Of a stretch of 46,714 nt of DNA, positions 1 through 36,360 are shown one piece after another. The position numbers and the translations under genes are program-made. The stretch lies in assembly GCA_964573245.1 (NCBI GenBank), contig CAZNJA010000002.1, positions 1-46,714 of the forward strand. The letters are read 5' to 3'. The notes beneath the pieces were generated by a model, which was not told the DNA's origin, made no database searches, and was given only the letters and a program-made list of their open reading frames with translations. Positions within the stretch are counted from its first letter, which is position 1. Each line of letters starts with the position of its first letter. The stretch is from an uncultured bacterium. Lineage in GTDB: Bacteria > CAIJMQ01.

Positions 1-1734
1 CGAATCGAAACTTAATTCATAAGCGCCGATATCAGTATAATTAGGATAGCCTGTTCCAGTATTAGGGACATTTTCAATGTCTGTTCGTGTGGTTCCCAGG
101 ATATCTTTTAAGGGCGCGACGCTTCCATAATATCCGCCATTAGCGGCATCAAGGCAGGGACTTTCTATACTAAGTTTTAAGCCGTCGTCTATAGTATAAA
201 ATAAGCCGTCAGCGCCTGCGGGATTAGTTGGATTTAAAAACAGCGGATTTTCGTCAATGTTACCGCCTTCATCTATGCCATAGTTAGAATCCCAACTTAC
301 GCTGCCGCCCGAGCTGTCTATGTCACTGTACCAGAAACGCGGAGACGAACTCACATTAAATATTCCGTCAGTTCCACTACCCCAAAGGATACAATTATTC
401 AATATCGGAGAAGAAGCCCAGCAATTGTATAAGTCGTCACCATACTCTGCGGTATTTCCCCAAAAGACACAGTTGTTTAACGCCACAACACTGACACGAT
501 TGAGTATACCACCGCCATAATAAGCATAATTTCCGACAAAAAGGCAGCTAATCAACACAGGATGATAAGGATAATAAGCTTCATTGATATATATACCTCC
601 GCCATAATCGGCATAGTTTCCGACGAAAATGCAATTAGTCAATTTCGGCGATGAGTTCCCAAATATGTACATACCGCCAAGTTCTCCATAATTATCTCTA
701 ATAATACATTTATTAATTTTGGGGCTGCTATTATTACAAATTATTCCAACTCCATCATTTGCTCCTCTAATTGTAAAGCCGTCCAAAGTATAATCACTAG
801 TACCAGTTACAACATTGAAACTATTGTCACCATAGTTAGTGAAATCCGGACCATCATCACCATTTAAATCTCCGTTTAAGATTGTTGGATTAGTTACTGA
901 ATTGCGGACTTTCCATAGACCACCACCAGAAGGAAACCCGCCATATACTGATACATTCTCTACAAGCTGGAAGGCCATTGTTTTGTCGCCGGTTGTAATG
1001 CCACTACCCTGGTCCGGTTTATAGACCCCAGATGTTACCCGTATCTCATCACCTGCTAAAATTTCGGGATTATTAATAGCATCCTGTAAATATTTAAAAG
1101 CAGAATCCCATGATACACCATCTCCTCCTGTGCCAATACTTGAATCAACATAGTAAATCTTTTTAGGAATAAGCGGATTAGTTCCATTCTCATATTCTTG
1201 AAGATTCGTGAAACCATCATTGTCAGGGTCTTCACTTGCGTCATCGGGATCAAAACGGTCTAATCCGTATTGAATTTCCCACCAGTCGGGCATACCATCA
1301 CAATCAGAATCACCCCAGCAAGGGGGGTCATCGTCCATATCTGTATCTATGTCAGTGTCTGCATCAGTATCTGTGTCGGCATCAGTATCAGTATCAGTGT
1401 CAGTATCGGTATCAGTGTCTGTATCCGTATCTGTATCAGCTGGGGGAGGAGGAGGCGGTGGGTCATCATCACTGTCGCTGTCAGCATCTGAATCCGCATC
1501 GGCGTCACTGTCGCTATCATCGTCACCAGGCGGTGGAGGAGGACATGCTTCTGTTATATCTGTAGAAAAAGAAGTCAAAACTTGTTGGATAATATTTTTA
1601 ATACCGCTGTTATCTTTAACCCTGAAATTAATTAATGACGAGCGAAAACTTAAAAAAGGCAGTAATACAAAGAAAATTAAGAAAACTACAAAAACAATTT
1701 GCAGCCCTTTGGTTATATTTCTATTTGTTACCAT
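1..1734 (-). CDS. Surface/secreted right-handed beta-helix repeat protein, N-terminal 578 codons only (runs off window start). It has a membrane anchor or signal, a poly-Pro plus acidic (DS/DT)n linker, and TSP3-like Ca-binding motifs.
   Basis: Absent from the ORF track because it has no stop in the window. My translation from ATG 1734..1732: MVTNRNITKGLQIVFVVFLIFFVLLPFLSF...PPPPPGDDDSDSDADADSD...PPPPPPADTDTDTDTDTDTD...DSDCDGMPDWWEIQYGLDRFDPDDASEDPDNDGFTNLQEYENGTNP. This is followed by repeated turns such as NKCIIRDNYGELGGMYIF / TNCIFVGNYADYGGGIYI / ISCLFVGNYAYYGGGIL / NNCVFWGNTAEYG / NNCILWGS, typical of the pectate-lyase-fold beta-helix. The frame stays open to position 1. Confidence 0.75.
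   Translation of the reverse strand, partial: MVTNRNITKGLQIVFVVFLIFFVLLPFLSFRSSLINFRVKDNSGIKNIIQQVLTSFSTDITEACPPPPPGDDDSDSDADADSDADSDSDDDPPPPPPPADTDTDTDTDTDTDTDTDTDADTDTDADTDIDTDMDDDPPCWGDSDCDGMPDWWEIQYGLDRFDPDDASEDPDNDGFTNLQEYENGTNPLIPKKIYYVDSSIGTGGDGVSWDSAFKYLQDAINNPEILAGDEIRVTSGVYKPDQGSGITTGDKTMAFQLVENVSVYGGFPSGGGLWKVRNSVTNPTILNGDLNGDDGPDFTNYGDNSFNVVTGTSDYTLDGFTIRGANDGVGIICNNSSPKINKCIIRDNYGELGGMYIFGNSSPKLTNCIFVGNYADYGGGIYINEAYYPYHPVLISCLFVGNYAYYGGGILNRVSVVALNNCVFWGNTAEYGDDLYNCWASSPILNNCILWGSGTDGIFNVSSSPRFWYSDIDSSGGSVSWDSNYGIDEGGNIDENPLFLNPTNPAGADGLFYTIDDGLKLSIESPCLDAANGGYYGSVAPLKDILGTTRTDIENVPNTGTGYPNYTDIGAYELSFDS
1333..1527 (-). repeat. In-frame hexanucleotide (GAYACN / GAYAGY) low-complexity tract encoding (DT)n and (DS/DA)n, separated by a poly-Pro block
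   Basis: The plus strand reads gtatctgtatctatgtcagtgtctgcatcagtatctgtgtcggcatcagtatcagtatcagtgtcagtatcggtatcag... The antisense artefact ORF 1349..1810 (SVSASVSV...) is its mirror image. Confidence 0.9.
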
Positions 1735-1735
1735 T

Positions 1736-4155
1736 TTACTCCAAATTCAGATTACTCAGCCCGCGCATAGCACGCACAATCGATTTATTATCCACATTTC
1801 TTTTTTCTAGGACAGCGATTAAAGCCTGCTCTATTTGGGGGTTCGCTTCTGATACTGTAACAGTCCCAGATTTTACCAATTTCTTATAGGAACTGGCTGT
1901 TAGTAATTGTACATAATGAGTGTATGAATAATCAGGCCAGTTATTAACTACTTTTTGACAGTTTTGCAAAGCATTCGCATAATTACCTAATTGATAATCA
2001 CAGTAAGCCACATAAAGAAGCCCCTCTGATACAACTGAAGAGGGGATGTGTTCTGGCGAGTTAACTATCTTTTCATCAACAATGCTTTTTATAATTTGAA
2101 ACATTTCTTTAGCTTTTTCATTATCACTTTGTGAATCTGCTGTTTTATAAAGCTCCAATTGGGCAAATCAGGATGTCCTGCAAAATTTTTAAGGAAATTA
2201 TCAATATCCATTTTTACTTGATAATCATATTCTCCTAATTTTACAAGAGATAACATCATTTCCGACATTGTCAAACCTAGATTTGCCTTTGAGGCATAGG
2301 AGCTTTCGCAATAATTCTGTATTATTTGCTGATAGATATTTTTTGATTCTTCGTATTTGTTTAACCATCCGTATATTTGTGCGATGTTATATAGCGCTTC
2401 CGGTAAATCAGGATTGATAGAAAATCCATCAATAAGTTCATTAATAGCTATCTTGGCTTGGCTATAGTTTTCAGACACCATAAGAGATAAAATATTCATC
2501 CTTAAGGAACTTACTTTTGCTTTGTTAGCGAATGAACTATTAGGATAGTTCTCAAATATTTGCTGATAGACAATTTTTGCTTCGTCAAAGTTATCCGACC
2601 ATTCATATCTTCTTGCCACATTATAAAGTGTTTCCAGAAAATCAGGGTTTTCCGAAAAATTTACTGTCATCTCTCCAATCGCCGTTCTTGCTTCATCCCA
2701 TTGTCCCGTTATAATTAAGTAGCAGATATCATTCCTTGAAACACCAAACAACGCTGGCTGAAACTTATCACTATCAGAATACTTTTGTACTATCTTTTGA
2801 TAAACGCAACTTGCATCTTCATATCTATTTGCCCATTCATACCTTCTTGCAACTTCATAAAGAGTCTCTGTTAAATCAATGTTTCCAGAGAAATTGCTGA
2901 CAAGTTCATCAACAGCTTTTCTGCTTTCGGTGTACTTATGCGACAAGATAAGAGAAAGAACGTTAGTACTTGAAACACCCAATAATGATTTCTGGGCATA
3001 TGAACTATTAGGGTAATACTGTATCACTTGCTGATAAAACTTATTCGCATCTTCATATTTACGCGCCCAGCTGTATCTCTCCGCAATCCAGTAAAGAGTC
3101 GCTGGGAAATCAGGGTGTTCATAGAAAGTTGACGTTAATTCAGCAATAGCTTGTTTCGCTTGTTCATATTCTCCAGATACAATAAGAGAGAGAATATTTG
3201 TTTTATAAAAATCTAATTCTGATTTAATTGCATAGGAGCTTTCGGGGTAATTCTGAATTATCTGTTGAAATATATCTCTGGCTAGCTCATATTCATCTGA
3301 CCATCCATACCTTTGACCAATCCAGTAAAGTGTATCAGGTAAATCGGGATGTTCATGGAAATCAGATGTTATTTTGTTTATCTCTGCCTGAGCTGCTTCT
3401 ATCTGTCCAGATATGATAAAAGAATATATATCCATTCTTGAGATACCTAACTGCGCTCTTTCAGCCTCTTTACTCTGGGGATACTGCTGAACTATTTGCT
3501 GAAAGATGTTCTTTGCTTCATCAAACTTATCCGACCATTCATATCTTCGCCCAATCCAGTAAAGAGTATCAGGCAAGTCAGGGTGTCCATTGAAATCTGA
3601 AGTTAATTCAGTAATAGCTTGTTCGACCTGTTCGTATTCTCTGGAGAGAATAAGAGAGTGAATGCTTGCTCTGAAAAAACCTAACTCTGCATTGCTTACA
3701 TCTATATTCATATTGCCGAAATTATTTTGCATTATTTGCTGGTACGAGTTTTTTGCATCTTCAAACCTATCTAACCATTCATAGCTACGTACGATATTGC
3801 AAAGTGTCTCTATTAATTCGGGGTGTTTTGAGAAATTACTGATTAGTGCATCCCTAACCTCTTCCGAGGCCTGGATATTATTCAATTCAATGTATAATGA
3901 TGCCAAATTTCCATAAGCCCTCAATGCATAATCAGTGCTTGAATATTCTTTAATAATAGTTTGATAGACTTGTTCAGCTTCGACATATTGGTGATTTTCA
4001 CGATAGTCTTTTGCCTTCTGTTCAAGAGCATCAGCTTGCTTGTTTGTTATTATCTGCGCAGAAGTATTTAAAACCCAGAAGATGATACCTAAAAATGCGA
4101 TAACACCAAGAATTTTGATGCCTACTTTACCAACCTGCCAAATTAGCTTAACCAT
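1736..4155 (-). pseudogene. Membrane-anchored TPR-like repeat protein of about 806 aa, split by a 1-nt frameshift near 2158-2167 (true pseudogene or assembly error)
   Basis: ORFs 2089..4155 and 1736..2158 overlap in different frames. The 78-aa repeat (F..HPDLPDTLYWIG.RYEWSD.FDEAKNIFQQI.Q.YP.S...) continues across the junction. Frame A reads ...FAGHPDLPNWSF and frame B reads LELYKTADSQSDNEKAKEMFQIIKS. Frame B has a TGA at 2170..2168, so the frame switch must lie within 2158-2167. Confidence 0.7.
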
Positions 4156-17728: not shown

Positions 17729-19270
17729 TTGAAGAACAATATCGTTCCTGTCGTTTTATCGGTGTCCTCTGCCACGCTTTTGACCTTTTCTTTTCATCCT
17801 TTCAACCTTTCATTTTTGGCGTGGATAGCGTTGGTCCCTTTGTTCTGCATTCCCCAAAAAATATCGCCTAAAAAAATATTTATCCTTTATTATTCTGCCG
17901 GGATTATTTTCTGGTTATCTCATATTTGGTGGCTGATTTATGTAACTCCTTTAGGTTATGTTCTTTTGTCTTTTTATCTTGCCCTATTTTTCGGGCTTTT
18001 GGGATTACTTATTAAATTTTCGAGAGAAAAGACAGGTTATCCTCTCTTGTTTCTCGCCCCGCCTATTTGGGTTATGCTCGAGTTTGCAAGAACTTATATG
18101 TTAATAAGCTTTCCCTGGTCTTTGCTGGGTTATTCGCAATGGCACAATACCGCGCTTATACAAATCTCTTCCATAACAGGTGTTTACGGCGTTTCTTTTT
18201 TGATTGTTATGTTCAATGCGGCAGCATCCGATTTGGTTCTGTTAAAAACAAAAAAGCACTTTCGAAATCTTTTATTATCTTTTCTGACAATAATAAATGT
18301 TATCGTATGGGGCTGGCATGCAATTCCTTTAGAGCAAGAAGGGTACGCCTGCCAGAAAATAAAAATTTCTGTGATTCAAGGAAACATTCCGCAGAACATC
18401 AAATGGGACGAAGAATATTCGAAAGAAATTATAAATACTTATGCGGAGCTAAGCATTTACGCAGGGACAGACCATGATGTTTCTTTAATCGTTTGGCCCG
18501 AAACTTCATATCCGGATTATATTAGCGTTGAAAGCGAATTGTTCCAAAAAGTGCGCAATTTGACTTATTATCTAGACACGCATTTGTTGTTTGGCGCGGT
18601 TACAAGCCAAAATAACAGAGATTACAACTCTGCTTTGCTACTATTATCTCCCGAGGCAGAGATAGAGCAAGTTTATAATAAGTTGCGTCTTGTCCAGTTT
18701 GCCGAATATCTTCCCCTTAAAAAACTTTTATTTTTTTTAAGCGACATTTTCCCGCAAATAGGCGATTTTAGCAAAGGCACGGAATACACTATATTCAATA
18801 TCAAAAATCAAATATCAAATATCAAATATAACTTCGCAACATTGATTTGTTTCGAGGATTTGTTTCCGGATTTGGCAAGGGACTTTACCAATAACGGAGC
18901 ACAGTTTTTAGTCAATATCACTAACGACGCGCACTTTAAAGAATCCCCTGCTTTATGGCAACATTTTGCTCATTCAATTTTCAGAGCCGTAGAAAACAGA
19001 AGACCAATAGTAAGAGCGGCAAACAACGGTATAAGCGCGTTTATAAATTCTTACGGAAAACCGATTGAAATATTAACAGACGCCAACGGCAAAGCACGCG
19101 GAGCACGAGGGTACGCAACCGCGCAAATTAGCCCTTCCAACACTAAAACTTTTTATACCCGTTTCGGAGATTTATTCATTTACATCAACTTGCTTTACCT
19201 GTTTGCTTTATCTATTTATCCTATCCGACAACAAAGAAAAAAAGGAAAACAGGGAGTAAAGAAATTATAA
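17729..19270 (+). CDS. lnt: Apolipoprotein N-acyltransferase
   Basis: 513 aa with an N-terminal polytopic domain and a CN-hydrolase domain. Catalytic-triad contexts: IVWPETSYP, YNKLRLVQFAEYLP, TLICFEDLFP. TTG start. Confidence 0.88.
   Translation: MKNNIVPVVLSVSSATLLTFSFHPFNLSFLAWIALVPLFCIPQKISPKKIFILYYSAGIIFWLSHIWWLIYVTPLGYVLLSFYLALFFGLLGLLIKFSREKTGYPLLFLAPPIWVMLEFARTYMLISFPWSLLGYSQWHNTALIQISSITGVYGVSFLIVMFNAAASDLVLLKTKKHFRNLLLSFLTIINVIVWGWHAIPLEQEGYACQKIKISVIQGNIPQNIKWDEEYSKEIINTYAELSIYAGTDHDVSLIVWPETSYPDYISVESELFQKVRNLTYYLDTHLLFGAVTSQNNRDYNSALLLLSPEAEIEQVYNKLRLVQFAEYLPLKKLLFFLSDIFPQIGDFSKGTEYTIFNIKNQISNIKYNFATLICFEDLFPDLARDFTNNGAQFLVNITNDAHFKESPALWQHFAHSIFRAVENRRPIVRAANNGISAFINSYGKPIEILTDANGKARGARGYATAQISPSNTKTFYTRFGDLFIYINLLYLFALSIYPIRQQRKKGKQGVKKL
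18795..18830 (+). repeat. Heptanucleotide tandem array (TCAATA TCAAAAA TCAAATA x3) inside the lnt CDS
   Basis: Direct reading. It encodes FNIKNQISNIKYN just upstream of the catalytic-Cys strand. The 19-mer AATATCAAAAATCAAATAT (18797-18815) is identical to 27836-27854. Confidence 0.85.
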
Positions 19271-20603: not shown

Positions 20604-20652
20604 ACCCCGTGTTTACGCTCCGACGTAACGTCGGAGCTATCTCTAACGGGGT
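20604..20652. repeat. Nested GC-rich palindromic element (outer ACCCCGT/ACGGGGT, inner GCTCCGACGT-A-ACGTCGGAGC)
   Basis: Direct reading. The inner 21-nt palindrome is shared with the copy inside folC (22737-22757). It ends 4 nt before the AGGAGG RBS of the DUF47 gene. Confidence 0.85.
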
Positions 20653-21344: not shown

Positions 21345-21398
21345 AACTCGCAACTACAGAAAACGGTTATCGGTTTTCGGTTATCGGTGTTCGTTAAA
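21345..21398. repeat. Heptanucleotide direct array (AACTCGC AACTACA ... CGGTTAT CGGTTTT CGGTTAT CGGTGTT CGTTAAA)
   Basis: Direct reading. It fills the convergent spacer between the DUF47 gene and the orphan gene and overlaps the orphan gene's stop codon (21394-21396). Confidence 0.8.
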
Positions 21399-22059: not shown

Positions 22060-23469
22060 TTATTCCTGTTTCTTCTTCAATAGTATACTTCTAGCCTCTC
22101 CTACCAAATACAAAGAGCCGCAGACAAGGATAATATCATTACTCCCTTTATTTTTCTTAAGTTTTTTTATGGTTGATGAAAGATTCTTGCTTGTTGTTAT
22201 GTTTGCATTGTAAGTTTCCCCATCTTTCTTCAGTTCCTCCAAAGAAACAGCTCTTTCGGTATTGGGTTTAGCTAAAATTATCTCATTTGCCAGGGGGAAA
22301 ATTTCTCGCATGATTTCCTCTCTGTCTTTATCTTTAAGTATTCCGAAAAGAATAGTAATTTTTTTATCTTTTTTTAATTTCAAGATTTCTTCTCTCAACA
22401 TCCCTGCCGCCTGCGGATTATGCGCTCCGTCGAGAATAAATATGGGGGGTTTTTTTCCAACACCAAAATTTTCCTGCCCGCCAAGATTTGGCAGGCGGGG
22501 GTGTGGGGACAGGCCTATGACCTCCAGTCTTCCTGACCAGGTAGTTTTCTGCAAGCCTTTATATATATGTTCTTTTTTAATTTTGAATTTTTCGGATAAT
22601 ATTTCGGATGCGGCAACAGCCAAACTTGCGTTCGTATGCTGCCATTTGCCTTTTAAATTTATTACAACATTCGGATAAGAACCTTTTATACCCTTAATAT
22701 TTAATGTTTGACCCAAGAAATACTCCCCGCCTGCTTGCTCCGACGTTACGTCGGAGCGGGCAGGTTTGTATTTTTTCACGAAAAAATCTTTACCGTATAT
22801 AAAAATAGGCGATTTTTTTTCTTTTGCAAGTTCGTTCAGAGTACCAAGCGCTTCTCCTTCAGCGCCCGTAACCAGAGGAGTGTTTTTCCTTATGATCCCG
22901 CCCTTTTCTTTTGCGATGGACGAAACGGTTTTTCCCAGATAATTCGTATGCTCAAGCCCAATACTCGTTATTACCGAAAGGATTGGTTCGGATACATTCG
23001 TGGCATCAAGCCGTCCGCCAAGACCCACTTCATAAACAGCGGCGTTTATTTTTTCCTTCCTGAAATATAAAAATGAAAGCGCTGTCAACACTTCGAAAAA
23101 AGTCGGTCGCGAATAAGGCGGGCAATCGAAGATTTTTTTGATTTCTTTTTTCAATTCGTCCGTAAGGCAAGCAAAAGCCATCCGCGGTATATCCGTTTTT
23201 TTATCACCTCGAAGTATACTGATTCTTTCTCTTATTGTTATAAGATGCGGAGAAGTGTATAGGCCGATTTTCAATCCTGTTTCTCGCAAGATATGAGCAA
23301 TAAAAGAAGCAACAGAACCCTTGCCATTTGTGCCGGCTACCAGAATGACAGGATACGAAAGATGCGGACTATCAAAATGTTCAAGGAGTTTTCTGATATT
23401 GGAAAGACCTAATTTAATTCCCTGCCCTTCTAAACCATAAAGCCAGTTGAGGGATTGTTTGTAAGTCAT
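22060..23469 (-). CDS. folC: Bifunctional folylpolyglutamate synthase / dihydrofolate synthase
   Basis: 469 aa. Mur-ligase P-loop VAGTNGKGSV, TSPHL, typical N-terminus LNWLY......GIKLGL.N...LL. It contains two GC-rich hairpin segments in-frame. Confidence 0.9.
   Translation of the reverse strand: MTYKQSLNWLYGLEGQGIKLGLSNIRKLLEHFDSPHLSYPVILVAGTNGKGSVASFIAHILRETGLKIGLYTSPHLITIRERISILRGDKKTDIPRMAFACLTDELKKEIKKIFDCPPYSRPTFFEVLTALSFLYFRKEKINAAVYEVGLGGRLDATNVSEPILSVITSIGLEHTNYLGKTVSSIAKEKGGIIRKNTPLVTGAEGEALGTLNELAKEKKSPIFIYGKDFFVKKYKPARSDVTSEQAGGEYFLGQTLNIKGIKGSYPNVVINLKGKWQHTNASLAVAASEILSEKFKIKKEHIYKGLQKTTWSGRLEVIGLSPHPRLPNLGGQENFGVGKKPPIFILDGAHNPQAAGMLREEILKLKKDKKITILFGILKDKDREEIMREIFPLANEIILAKPNTERAVSLEELKKDGETYNANITTSKNLSSTIKKLKKNKGSNDIILVCGSLYLVGEARSILLKKKQE
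22472..22518. repeat. GC-clamp hairpin segment inside folC (CCTGCCCGCC-AAGATTT-GGCAGGCGGGGG plus GTGTGGGGACAGG)
   Basis: Direct reading. CCCGCC/GGCGGG or CCTGCC/GGCAGG can pair. The flanks match those of the 22725-22765 element in the opposite orientation. It encodes ...LSPHPRLPNLGGQEN... Confidence 0.6.
22725..22765. repeat. 41-nt GC-rich palindromic element inside folC, in-frame
   Basis: CCCCGCCTGCTTGCTCCGACGTTACGTCGGAGCGGGCAGGT, 29/41 G+C. It shares 33/41 identity with 29135-29175. It encodes KPARSDVTSEQAGGE. Confidence 0.85.
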
Positions 23470-23481
23470 ATCTATGAAAAT

Positions 23482-23562
23482 GGATACTCGATGCTTGATA
23501 CTAGATTCTAGTTAATAAATCCTCCTGCTTTTACGAGTATCGAGAATCCAGTATCTAGTATC
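23482..23562. repeat. Inverted pair of heptamer arrays: (NGATNCT)x4, 21-nt loop, (GAGTATC GAGAATC CAGTATC TAGTATC)
   Basis: Left arm GGATACT CGATGCT TGATACT AGATTCT at 23482-23509. Right arm at 23535-23562. The 30-nt arms are 22/30 complementary in register. Confidence 0.85.
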
Positions 23563-23570
23563 ATTGTAAG

Positions 23571-24299
23571 TTATTCTTTTTGATTTAAGATTATTTCCCC
23601 TTCTCCTGAGATTTTTCCCTCGTTCAAACTTGCGGAGAAATTCTTCAATATAATTTGATTGTCAAACCAAACAAGGGACATTTCCACACTGTTCATAAGA
23701 ACCGAATATAAAGCCGCTTCCTGAAAAATAGTCATTATTTCAAATGGGCCGTTAGGCAAAAATCCTTTGACATCAAACTGAGCCTCGGCGGGGAGTTTAA
23801 AAGCGCTGTAATCTTTCAGGAAAGGGAAAAAAGAAGATATTTCTTCGAGGAGTACGCCTTCTGCTTTTACATTTACTTGAAAAGGATAAGGCACAACTAA
23901 ATCCATCTCTGCTTGCGCATCAAAAGGAGCAGTGCCCAATTCCCCCTTCAGCGGACCTATATTCAGTTTTTTATCTTTTACGGTAAAACTCCCGTTAAGA
24001 TGATTAATTTCCTTATCCCATTCGTTCAAAAGAATTCTGCCTTCGTTTATATTGCCTTCGGCTTTTAACAAAACTTCTTCAGAAAGTTCGGATTTATAAA
24101 AAAGAAAAAACACGTTGGCTCGCCCATCTAACACTTGGATTCTTGTGTCCAACAAAGGAATTTCAGATAGTGGAATGTCTTCCCACTTTATGCTGAATTG
24201 CCAATTGACATTATTTTCGGAAGGTTGGCATAGAACCAAAGTGTTGGACAATATAAAAAAGCATACAAAGAAGATTATATTTCTAAAGAGATTTTTCAC
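23571..24299 (-). CDS. Hypothetical secreted/periplasmic protein (possibly AsmA/TamB-like fragment)
   Basis: 242 aa with signal peptide MKNLFRNIIFFVCFFILSNTLVLCQPS and a beta-rich sequence. GTG start. The family assignment is tentative. Confidence 0.5.
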   Translation of the reverse strand: MKNLFRNIIFFVCFFILSNTLVLCQPSENNVNWQFSIKWEDIPLSEIPLLDTRIQVLDGRANVFFLFYKSELSEEVLLKAEGNINEGRILLNEWDKEINHLNGSFTVKDKKLNIGPLKGELGTAPFDAQAEMDLVVPYPFQVNVKAEGVLLEEISSFFPFLKDYSAFKLPAEAQFDVKGFLPNGPFEIMTIFQEAALYSVLMNSVEMSLVWFDNQIILKNFSASLNEGKISGEGEIILNQKE

Positions 24300-27812: not shown

Positions 27813-27833
27813 CTTCACCCCTTATTTTAAAAT

Positions 27834-28007
27834 TAAATATCAAAAATCAAATATTAAAATTTAAATAGGAAAACCCGCGCTGACAAAGTTCTGTTATTAG
27901 CTTTTTCTGGTATCGAGCATTTAGTATCAAGAATCCAGTTTCTCATTTTGAACTTTAATTTGTCATTTTGCATTTTTACTTTTTAATTTTTACTTTTGCC
28001 TTTAGAT
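27834..28007. repeat. Composite heptamer-periodic spacer: (YAAAWAT)x5, a 41-nt non-periodic core, then 14 consecutive heptamers (GTATCGA GCATTTA GTATCAA GAATCCA GTTTCTC ATTTTGA ... TTTTTAC TTTTGCC TTTAGAT)
   Basis: Direct reading. It occupies nearly all of the 196-202 bp rpiB-ilvE spacer. It shares the words GTATCGAG, TAGTATCAAG and GAATCCAG with the array at 23482-23562. Confidence 0.85.
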
Positions 28008-28014
28008 TATACCT

Positions 28015-29117: not shown

Positions 29118-29134
29118 ATTATCTTTTTAAAAAT

Positions 29135-29173
29135 CCCCGCCTGCTTGTCCCAACGTAACGTCGGGATGGGCAG
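29135..29173. repeat. Intergenic copy of the GC-rich palindromic element (prfB-tsaC spacer)
   Basis: CCCCGCCTGCTTGTCCCAACGTAACGTCGGGATGGGCAG. It has the same 13-nt left flank as the folC copy. On the minus strand it is followed by GGGGATTTTTAAAAAG. Confidence 0.85.
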
Positions 29174-29184
29174 ATGTGTAATCA

Positions 29185-31475: not shown

Positions 31476-31476
31476 A

Positions 31477-31599
31477 TTCCAAATCACAGGCACCAAACCA
31501 CAAATAAATTCCAATATTCAAAAGTATCCGTTTGGAATTTTGGTTATTGATTATTGGATATTATTTGATGATTAGTACTTGGAATTTATGATTTGGAAG
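31477..31599. repeat. Inverted heptamer-periodic arms in the dehydrogenase-phoH spacer
   Basis: TTCCAAATCA (31477-31486) pairs with TGATTTGGAA (31589-31598). AAATTCCAA (31506-31514) pairs with TTGGAATTT (31579-31587, also 31532-31540). The right arm is in 7-nt register: TTGGTTA TTGATTA TTGGATA (4-nt slip) TTGATGA TTAGTAC TTGGAAT TTATGAT TTGGAAG. Confidence 0.75.
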
Positions 31600-31607
31600 C
31601 TATACAG

Positions 31608-36287: not shown

Positions 36288-36290
36288 CTT

Positions 36291-36360
36291 TAGATAATAG
36301 ACACTAGACCACAGACTAAAAGAAAGTCCAATATCTAATGTCTATGGTCTAATAACTATG
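36291..36360. repeat. Inverted heptamer arrays (TAGATAA TAGACAC TAGACCA CAGACTA ... ATCTAAT GTCTATG GTCTAAT AACTATG) in the lptA-lptB spacer
   Basis: Direct reading. TAGACCACAGAC (36305-36316) is complementary to GTCTATGGTCTA (36340-36351) with one mismatch. The right arm runs into the lptB start codon. Confidence 0.8.

Follow-up and report, generated by a model that had tools for sequence, protein, structure and literature searches.

The units of the cyanobacterial STRR repeats are CCCCAGT, TTGGTCA and CAACAGT. In enterobacteria, REP hairpins form stem-loops in the mRNA; these stop 3' exonucleases and thereby adjust how strongly neighbouring cistrons are expressed relative to each other. The family sequence of REPs is conserved, they contain no tandem sub-repeats and they are mobilised by RAYT transposases. 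The operators of the omega repressor of plasmid pSM19035 are contiguous WATCACW heptads, in direct and inverted orientation, which lie in promoters and have a cognate RHH protein. In cyanobacteria, the 7-bp STRR repeats form a hairpin between hupS and hupL; the function of STRRs is unproven, and a role in transcript stability or translational coupling has been proposed (PMC2670836). Heptanucleotides are described as the most abundant long simple repeat in prokaryotes, with polymerase slippage as the proposed cause (Mrazek 2007, as cited in PMC4679880 and PMC4692102). The heptameric SSRs include GGGAATC in Xanthomonas and GGGGAYT in Nostoc, and their units are degenerate, of a (GGGANTN)n type; at a given spacer, the Xanthomonas GGGAATC repeats differ in length and sequence among close relatives, and some of the arrays lie as pairs on opposite strands, from which stem-loops could form (PMC4692102). 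TAACTGA direct repeats occur in 2-6 intergenic copies in marine Beggiatoaceae, Cyanobacteria and Bacteroidetes (MacGregor 2015, PMC4679880), and their patchy distribution across phyla suggests transfer; no mechanism is known for these repeats (PMC4679880). The cyanobacterial STRR heptamers and the Xanthomonas and Nostoc heptameric SSRs are the closest known kinds to the feature described here.

The feature lies in the 101-nt intercistronic spacer (23470-23570) between two minus-strand genes, a hypothetical protein gene (hyp) and folC, in the window, which is the whole 46,714-nt stretch of DNA that was analysed. It is an inverted pair of short heptanucleotide tandem arrays of the STRR/LSSR type (Table 1). 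Both the sequence of 23482-23562 and its inverted heptamer arms are exactly as an earlier note on this DNA had given them. There are four 7-nt units per arm, with the pattern NGAT[A/G/T]CT on the left and AG[T/A/C]ATCN on the right. TRF reports the right arm at period 7 with 3.9 copies, and the arms match themselves at ±7, as an array of at least 3-4 imperfect head-to-tail 7-nt copies does. The first bases of the loop, CGTAAAA, are a decayed unit that is also found in the relative L006. The hairpin begins 7 nt from the hyp stop codon and its base is ~12 nt from the folC ATG; a Shine-Dalgarno sequence is absent between the hairpin and this ATG in the window and in every relative. The hairpin locus is not an assembly artefact: over 23300-23800 it is identical to an independent Logan contig, which comes from a salt-marsh run.

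A mini-ORF of 18 codons (MILDTGFSILVKAGGFIN), which starts 6 nt past the upstream stop and spans the 5' arm, was dismissed because the relatives' units at this place are unrelated. The AGGAGG in the loop was rejected as a hidden ribosome-binding site because there is no start codon at a usable distance and L006 has no AGGAGG. The Pfam scan gave no match for the upstream 242-aa protein, and an exact-protein look-up of the window's folC protein returned no record.

Table 1. Positions of the hairpin, its neighbouring genes and the other heptamer arrays in the window
Feature	Position	Strand	Description
Left arm	23482..23511	+ (coordinates)	3' arm of the sense (minus-strand) RNA; units G GATACT / C GATGCT / T GATACT / A GATTCT, then AG
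Loop/spacer	23512..23533		22 nt; minus strand reads ...CGTAAAAGCAGGAGGATTTATTAAC...; AGGAGG at 23521-23526
Right arm	23534..23563	+ (coordinates)	5' arm of the sense RNA; units GAGTATC / GAGAATC / CAGTATC / TAGTATC
Upstream gene (hyp)	23571..24299	-	lineage-restricted 242-aa hypothetical protein, signal-peptide-like N-terminus
Downstream gene (folC)	22060..23469	-	Mur-ligase domains (Pfam); folylpolyglutamate/dihydrofolate synthase is the name in database sources
Third array of the NAG[T/A/C]ATC family	27909..27943	+	five units, one-armed; within the loop of the larger AAAATNA-type hairpin of the rpiB→ilvE spacer
Outer heptamer hairpin, rpiB→ilvE spacer	27824..28005		AAAATTA/AATATCA-type 27824-27866 pairs with TTTTGCA/TTTTTAC-type 27947-28005
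CGGTTAT array	21359..21395		~4.5 copies; convergent spacer after the PhoU_div gene
Long imperfect hairpin	31476..31600		CCAAA…/…TTGG(T/A)T units; -31.7 kcal/mol, z = -2.9
Heptamer hairpin	36290..36352		AGACACT AGACCAC AGACTAA … GTCTATG GTCTAAT; by inspection; -19.6 kcal/mol, z = -4.7
AATATCA array	18789..18836	+	~5 copies, in frame inside the apolipoprotein N-acyltransferase (LNT) ORF

The earlier note had pointed to words that the hairpin shares, in a different order, with a second site in the window, and had read them as a modular, shuffled repeat family rather than one conserved element. The second site is the third array of Table 1 (units GGTATC G AGCATT T AGTATC A AGAATC C AGTTTC), which has no partner arm and shows no fold (z = +1.5). 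Single words carry little signal, GTATCGAG occurring 2 times against 0.67 expected, TAGTATCAAG 2 times against 0.05 and GAATCCAG 3 times against 1.5, so that the 10-mer alone is significant and the 8-mers are unremarkable. The two-unit pattern AGNATCNAGNATC is found 7 times against 0.10 expected, a count reached in 0 of 100 shuffles, which argues against chance recurrence; all 7 matches fall within 23483-23562 and 27923-27935. Both sites are tandem arrays of one and the same degenerate heptamer, N-A-G-[T/A/C]-A-T-C, and this is why the words recur. The claim of a repeat family in place of a single conserved element is borne out, as other contigs from these salt-marsh metagenomes carry copies of each arm (~85-97% identity) between unrelated flanks. 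The shuffled modules have to be given up, as the different order of the words is merely variation at the N position and at position 4 of the one degenerate heptamer.

AGTATC hexamers at 1366-1407 were rejected as members of the heptamer family, as they lie inside an (Asp-Thr)n-coding repeat of period 6/12 in the ORF of a large secreted protein; the same repeat accounts for the period-6/12 AGTATC matches at 1338-1439. The protein is encoded by a partial ORF (window 1-1746, minus strand) and combines long acidic (DS/DA/DT)n repeats with a poly-Pro tract and with a region that is beta-helix-like.

The arms are complementary at 22/30 positions in register and at 18/30 at ±7, compared to 2-9/30 at all other offsets. 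The pairing in shifted registers suggested in the earlier note is therefore reproduced, and the energies favour +7: the predicted values for the sense RNA are -12.1 kcal/mol for register 0, -17.8 for +7, -13.1 for -7 and -13.0 for +14. The MFE of the sense (minus-strand) RNA is -22.9 kcal/mol (z = -2.4); the MFE structure makes up only ~1% of the Boltzmann ensemble, which is divided between the +7 and +14 registers. The folding model thus predicts that slipping between alternative registers is real. The plus-strand (antisense) RNA is slightly more stable than the sense RNA at -25.8 kcal/mol (z = -2.8), and the single-stranded DNA fold reaches -10.4 (z = -1.9). The five N positions of the arms are unpaired in all registers; therefore, the helix would consist of 6-bp blocks with 1×1 mismatches between them. 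Slippery pairing is general, as 39 heptamer hairpins have a complementarity of 85% in the best register and 78% at ±7. The order of purine-first and pyrimidine-first arms was dropped as an orientation test because a hairpin of such form is its own reverse complement.

The window has at least 8 period-7 arrays, with at least 6 unrelated unit types in 47 kb. TRF places CGGTTAT at 21364, AAAATCA at 27829, TTTTTAC at 27973, TTGGTTA at 31540 and AATATCA at 18797. Units related to the CGGTTAT array are present at the same spacer in L005, L006 and L009, and the long imperfect hairpin at 31476 occupies the spacer between an isocitrate/isopropylmalate dehydrogenase-family gene and phoH. Heptamer arrays also encode, in frame, a variable loop of LNT (ORF 17729-19270). 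In this loop, AATATCA-type units give the peptide NIKNQISNIKYN in the window and similar A/T-rich units give KIKNQKLKIKNR in L010 (15351-15394). A CGGTTAT-type array at L005:14860-14895 encodes RTPITDNRKPS in LNT, with close peptides at the same position in L003 and L004; the window CGGTTAT array is closer to this array in the L005 LNT gene than to the orthologous spacer. In L006 and L008 the LNT gene is split at the position of the variable loop.

A second repeat class consists of GC-rich palindromes with the cores CTCCGACGT(A/T)ACGTCGGAG and CCCCGCCTGCCAAATCTTGGCGGGCAGG, which are found at 22726-22764 and 22444-22509 (both inside folC), at 20608-20650 and 29129-29180, and in the ilvE→clpC spacer of L001. 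The two palindromes in folC are in frame and add 13 aa and 22 aa to the protein. The 13-aa insert is absent from all four aligned relatives; at the second insert site nothing is inserted in P0004, P0006 and P0007, the insert of P0002 is shorter, and other relatives have their own insertions at other folC positions. These insertions resemble the in-frame insertions of Rickettsia palindromic elements. One of the copies in spacers is followed by T5 and is terminator-like. L008, and no other of the genomes, has a HinfI-type restriction-modification pair (827-3189; PF09520 HinfI and an N6_N4 methyltransferase) which adjoins a fragmented isocitrate/isopropylmalate dehydrogenase-family gene. GANTC, the site of HinfI and CcrM, is included in the AGAATC unit, probably by coincidence.

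In the species-representative collection, the nearest genome is a syntenic Candidatus Omnitrophota MAG with a folC 71% identical to that of the window, and other close relatives are labelled Omnitrophica or 'Ratteibacteria'. Judging from the syntenic relative, the window genome is assigned to Candidatus Omnitrophota; the window sequence is present in salt-marsh sediment metagenomes, and the locus was found in no RNA run. Self-matching arrays with periods of 2-15 were counted in the window and nine syntenic relatives (225 kb). The ten genomes have 29 period-7 arrays in 20.3 kb of non-coding DNA versus 4 in 205 kb of coding DNA, and the non-coding arrays at other periods number 0-3 each, save for 17 at the harmonic 14. 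Period 7 is thus over-represented on the level of the lineage, the window genome itself being represented by 46.7 kb. The heptamer arrays are a period-7-specific and spacer-specific phenomenon which is lineage-wide and involves many different units. Only about one third of the arrays are inverted pairs; about two thirds have no partner arm.

The best overall explanation, which we consider to have about an even chance of being correct, combines the identity of the repeat class with an origin by slippage and copying and with an intercistronic RNA stem-loop. Units would expand and contract in 7-nt steps through replication slippage. The second arm would result from inverted duplication, template switching or parallel expansion flanking a seed palindrome, and array types would afterwards be copied from spacer to spacer. 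Slippage, inverted copying and copying between spacers would together explain both the re-use of units within a genome and the unrelated units at the same spacer in relatives. Slippage in situ alone fails to explain the same units at unrelated sites and in genomes with a GC content from 33% to 70%.

The spacer would be transcribed within a minus-strand clpC-hyp-folC message, in which the arms may form a ~30-bp imperfect, register-slipping stem-loop. Since only ~12 nt separate the stem from a folC start codon that lacks a Shine-Dalgarno sequence, an intercistronic stem-loop is the most economical reading. The stem-loop could act as an intercistronic decay barrier or weak attenuator which uncouples the amount of the upstream message from folC, and the unit sequence as such would carry no information. 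By analogy with known hairpins this role is plausible, and we put it forward tentatively, at somewhat less than even chances.

A purely neutral origin is nearly as likely as the RNA role, although on its own it is also more doubtful than probable. The arrays would be neutral or selfish repeat DNA, a by-product of 7-nt-biased slippage or template switching that is tolerated in spacers, and the hairpin would have no selected function, with any effect on folC being incidental. The hyp→folC spacer bears on both possibilities. An inverted heptamer-array hairpin is present there in eight of the nine relatives (L001, L003, L005, L006, L007, L008, L009 and L010), and the L004 spacer is 36 nt long with no array. 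The units are GTAAATN in L001, AGTAGAG in L003, AAAATNA in L005 and L008, GGAAATA-like in L007, TTCCAAN in L009 and CGAANNT in L010. Only L006 shares the AGTATC type of the window; the start of its loop (GATACTCGTAAAA) is homologous and the unit numbers differ. Complete turnover of units at orthologous sites and the lack of an array in L004 are what neutral change would produce; the retention of an array or hairpin at the same spacer in eight of nine relatives, despite replacement of the sequence, speaks against it.

Across the ten genomes, the rpiB→ilvE spacer shows five large hairpins, all different in unit type, beside five short A-rich arrays with one arm; in this spacer, the left arm of the window's hairpin is homologous to the one-armed array of L005. 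The flanks are the rpiB stop with AGGTATAAT on one side and GGGGTGAAA with the ilvE start on the other, and the arrays vary between these conserved flanks. The ilvE→clpC spacer follows the same pattern. At orthologous spacers it is the presence of an array that is conserved, and not its sequence. All ten genomes also have AGGTATAAT right after the rpiB stop (window 28006-28014, minus strand). This motif resembles a -10 box for ilvE; the rpiB→ilvE hairpins would then lie in a 5' UTR. The GGGGTGAAA before the ilvE start is present in eight of the ten genomes; the window has AAGGG and then GTG, and L008 is without it.

The spacer also differs at shorter distances. In a related strain from run X2, a different sequence of 126 nt replaces the 110 nt of window 23470-23579, and the 5' end of folC has 13 differences in 97 nt (~87% identical). 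The whole spacer has thus been replaced between these close relatives. Assembled contigs, on which the view of unit-step variation is based, gave an identical allele and one strain with a wholly different spacer, beside the difference in unit numbers between the window and L006. The replaced spacer adds to the case for neutrality, as do the prevalence of one-armed arrays, the degenerate arms (22/30) with no preferred register, the gradual decay at array edges and the occurrence of the same array types in very diverse genomes and phages. The literature on heptameric SSRs likewise reports no demonstrated function (PMC4679880, PMC2670836, PMC4692102). The unpaired arrays, the array-free L004 spacer and the replacement in the ~87% identical strain fit neutral turnover as well as selection, which weighs against the RNA role.

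Three comparisons give weak hints at a role on the RNA level, and each of them is also a point against neutrality. Mismatches that are G·U-compatible number 22 in the sense and 11 in the antisense orientation, a sense bias that is itself weak (roughly p = 0.04-0.08). The density of arrays is 0.8 per kb in divergent spacers, a depletion relative to the 1.65-2.1 per kb of co-directional and convergent spacers. At variable unit positions, the arms pair in 69% of cases versus 50% in shifted-register controls, a comparison which is biased by the choice of the best register. Two properties of the hairpin itself count against an RNA role: the stem is poor (22/30, N positions unpaired, z -2.4 to -2.8), and the antisense strand is predicted to fold slightly better than the sense strand.

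The AGWATC unit family is not specific to the window genome or its phylum. Metagenome contigs with three AGWATC units comprise at least 120 stretches, with a GC content of 33-70% and from many environments, and many of the listed contigs have the same architecture of left array, short loop and right array. Among the matches listed, the metagenome loci (695 kb) contain 284 period-7 arrays versus 4-41 at other periods, and the consensus units across all loci are of 157 different kinds. AGWATC arrays are found in at least 118 viral contigs, and period 7 is the leading period among the matches listed. The repeat is therefore dispersed, with a second locus in the window (27909-27943), copies on other salt-marsh contigs, and the metagenome and viral contigs counted above. 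The IMG/VR loci L131-L170, many of them from sample 3300045988, are related viral contigs with a conserved locus in which (C/G)AGAATC arrays lie beside short GC-rich palindromes.

Several findings suggest that arrays are copied from site to site. Two stretches of L001 that lie 8 kb apart, L001:1552-1652 and L001:9829-9929, match at 91% identity over 101 nt, and the hyp→folC hairpin is included in this match. In this ~100-nt composite repeat, the heptamer hairpin (GTAAATN/NATTTAC) is joined by a second hairpin, small and perfect (TTAGAGATTGC..GCAATCTCAA), and by the tail GGACTTTGGTCCCGGGAATCTTT. In the hyp→folC spacer, a 51-nt stretch is 100% identical between L005 and L008, although their coding DNA is only 65-75% identical, which speaks against neutrality. 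The sharing of unit types between arrays exceeded a composition-preserving null in 300 of 300 permutations. A possible, although unlikely, reading is that the arrays are a distinct, actively propagated class of structured micro-elements rather than passive microsatellites. A 7-nt-step copying or insertion process common to Omnitrophota, many other uncultured bacteria and their phages would seed inverted arrays into operon spacers and, in frame, into tolerant protein loops, and selection would keep a long register-slipping stem at given spacers whatever its units. If true, this would be a structure-only RNA element with fast sequence turnover.

It is less probable still, and in our view improbable, that the hairpins are non-autonomous mobile micro-elements, moved or copied into spacers and tolerant coding loops by an enzyme whose gene lies elsewhere, on the model of REPIN/RAYT pairs, MITEs or cyanobacterial small dispersed repeats. 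The long near-identical copies at non-orthologous sites, the identical arms in diverged genomes and the window arms on other contigs with unrelated flanks are consistent with such movement. Two unit families of spacers also encode the LNT variable loop in frame, and the viral contigs with arrays are a possible vehicle. However, the AGTATC-type matches between arrays are short (22-31 nt) and expected from common units alone, and the 157 consensus classes among the matches listed are many for an element of this kind. The ends of the arrays are undefined, with 71/153 decaying into degenerate units; only 9/153 end in CGTAAAA, so there is no general terminus. No target-site duplication is visible in comparisons of filled and empty orthologous spacers. 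For the AGTATC family, a MITE or other defined mobile element was rejected for lack of conserved termini, terminal inverted repeats and target duplication. The Pfam scan of ORFs in the 46.7-kb window gave no transposase, RAYT or reverse transcriptase; it covered the ORFs other than the partial secreted-protein ORF (1-1746) and the LNT gene (17729-19270).

Lastly, a DNA-level protein-binding array (operator- or centromere-like heptads, as for the omega repressor of pSM19035) or an RNA-level array for a multimeric RNA-binding protein is highly improbable, for although the strict 7-bp spacing, the direct and inverted orientations, the length of three units (21 bp, or two helical turns) and a unit vocabulary common to genomes beyond what composition predicts would suit it, the six or more unrelated unit types in 47 kb would need as many cognate proteins, divergent promoter spacers are depleted and not enriched, the arms are non-contiguous with a 22-nt loop between them, and no candidate binding-protein gene is adjacent among the Pfam-scanned window ORFs.

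Among the long simple repeats of prokaryotes, heptamers are the most strongly over-represented. The lineage studied here is an unusually clean comparative system, in which the same operon spacers have conserved flanks and units that are repeatedly replaced. It allows two questions to be addressed: whether structure and periodicity are selected independently of sequence, and whether arrays are made in place or copied. Three features deserve attention: units are replaced at fixed spacers, diverged genomes have identical arms, and the same arrays double as coding sequence, in frame, for a protein loop. Annotators should avoid labelling such hairpins as terminators or novel sRNAs; the hairpins also break assemblies and ORF calls in these genomes.

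The resemblance to a Rho-independent terminator is that of a stem-loop after a stop codon. A terminator was rejected, as the stem is AT-rich, ~30 bp long and interrupted, and is followed by UUUU only; the scan of 23470-23570 calls none. Across 24 oriented hairpins there are 6 T-runs on the sense side versus 8 on the antisense side, which is no enrichment. Rfam 15 at the gathering score gave 0 matches for the whole window on both strands. The REP, BIME and REPIN elements are similar in being dispersed, extragenic, imperfect palindromes, often within operons, with the same proposed way of working. They differ from the arrays described here, which have no full-length consensus, an internal 7-nt periodicity and no RAYT among the Pfam-scanned window ORFs. 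Membership in the REP/REPIN class was rejected because only the 6-nt core of the unit is conserved, in place of a 20-40 nt consensus palindrome. The omega operators share the 7-bp units in direct and inverted orientation. An operator of this type was rejected in view of the intercistronic position, the arms being 22 nt apart, the several unrelated unit types in one window and the lack of an RHH gene nearby among the Pfam-scanned ORFs.

The TAACTGA repeats have one dominant unit, are almost always direct (with one inverted case) and are located just upstream of start codons, whereas the arrays described here have many units, are often inverted pairs and lie at varying distances from the start codon. 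The Xanthomonas and Nostoc SSRs are closer, as period 7 is over-represented in intergenic DNA in both cases and their NNGAATC resembles the AGAATC variant. They are G-rich and have been studied as G-quadruplex formers, whereas the arrays here are AT-rich and without G-tracts, so that a quadruplex is impossible.

The likeness to STRRs extends to 7-nt units in short, imperfect, intergenic arrays, often between co-transcribed genes, and to several unit types per genome, many dispersed copies and inverted arrays that can form a hairpin. The STRRs are known from heterocystous cyanobacteria and the present arrays from Omnitrophota, and the units differ, those found here being NAGTATC, CGGTTAT, AAAATNA, AGACNNN and others. 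No description of complete unit replacement at orthologous spacers, as seen here, was found for STRRs, and no literature linking Omnitrophota with heptamer repeats was found. With its period of 7, its intergenic position, its dispersal and its over-representation, the hairpin has the features of the STRR and long SSR class. It brings a known class of heptamer repeats to a new phylum.
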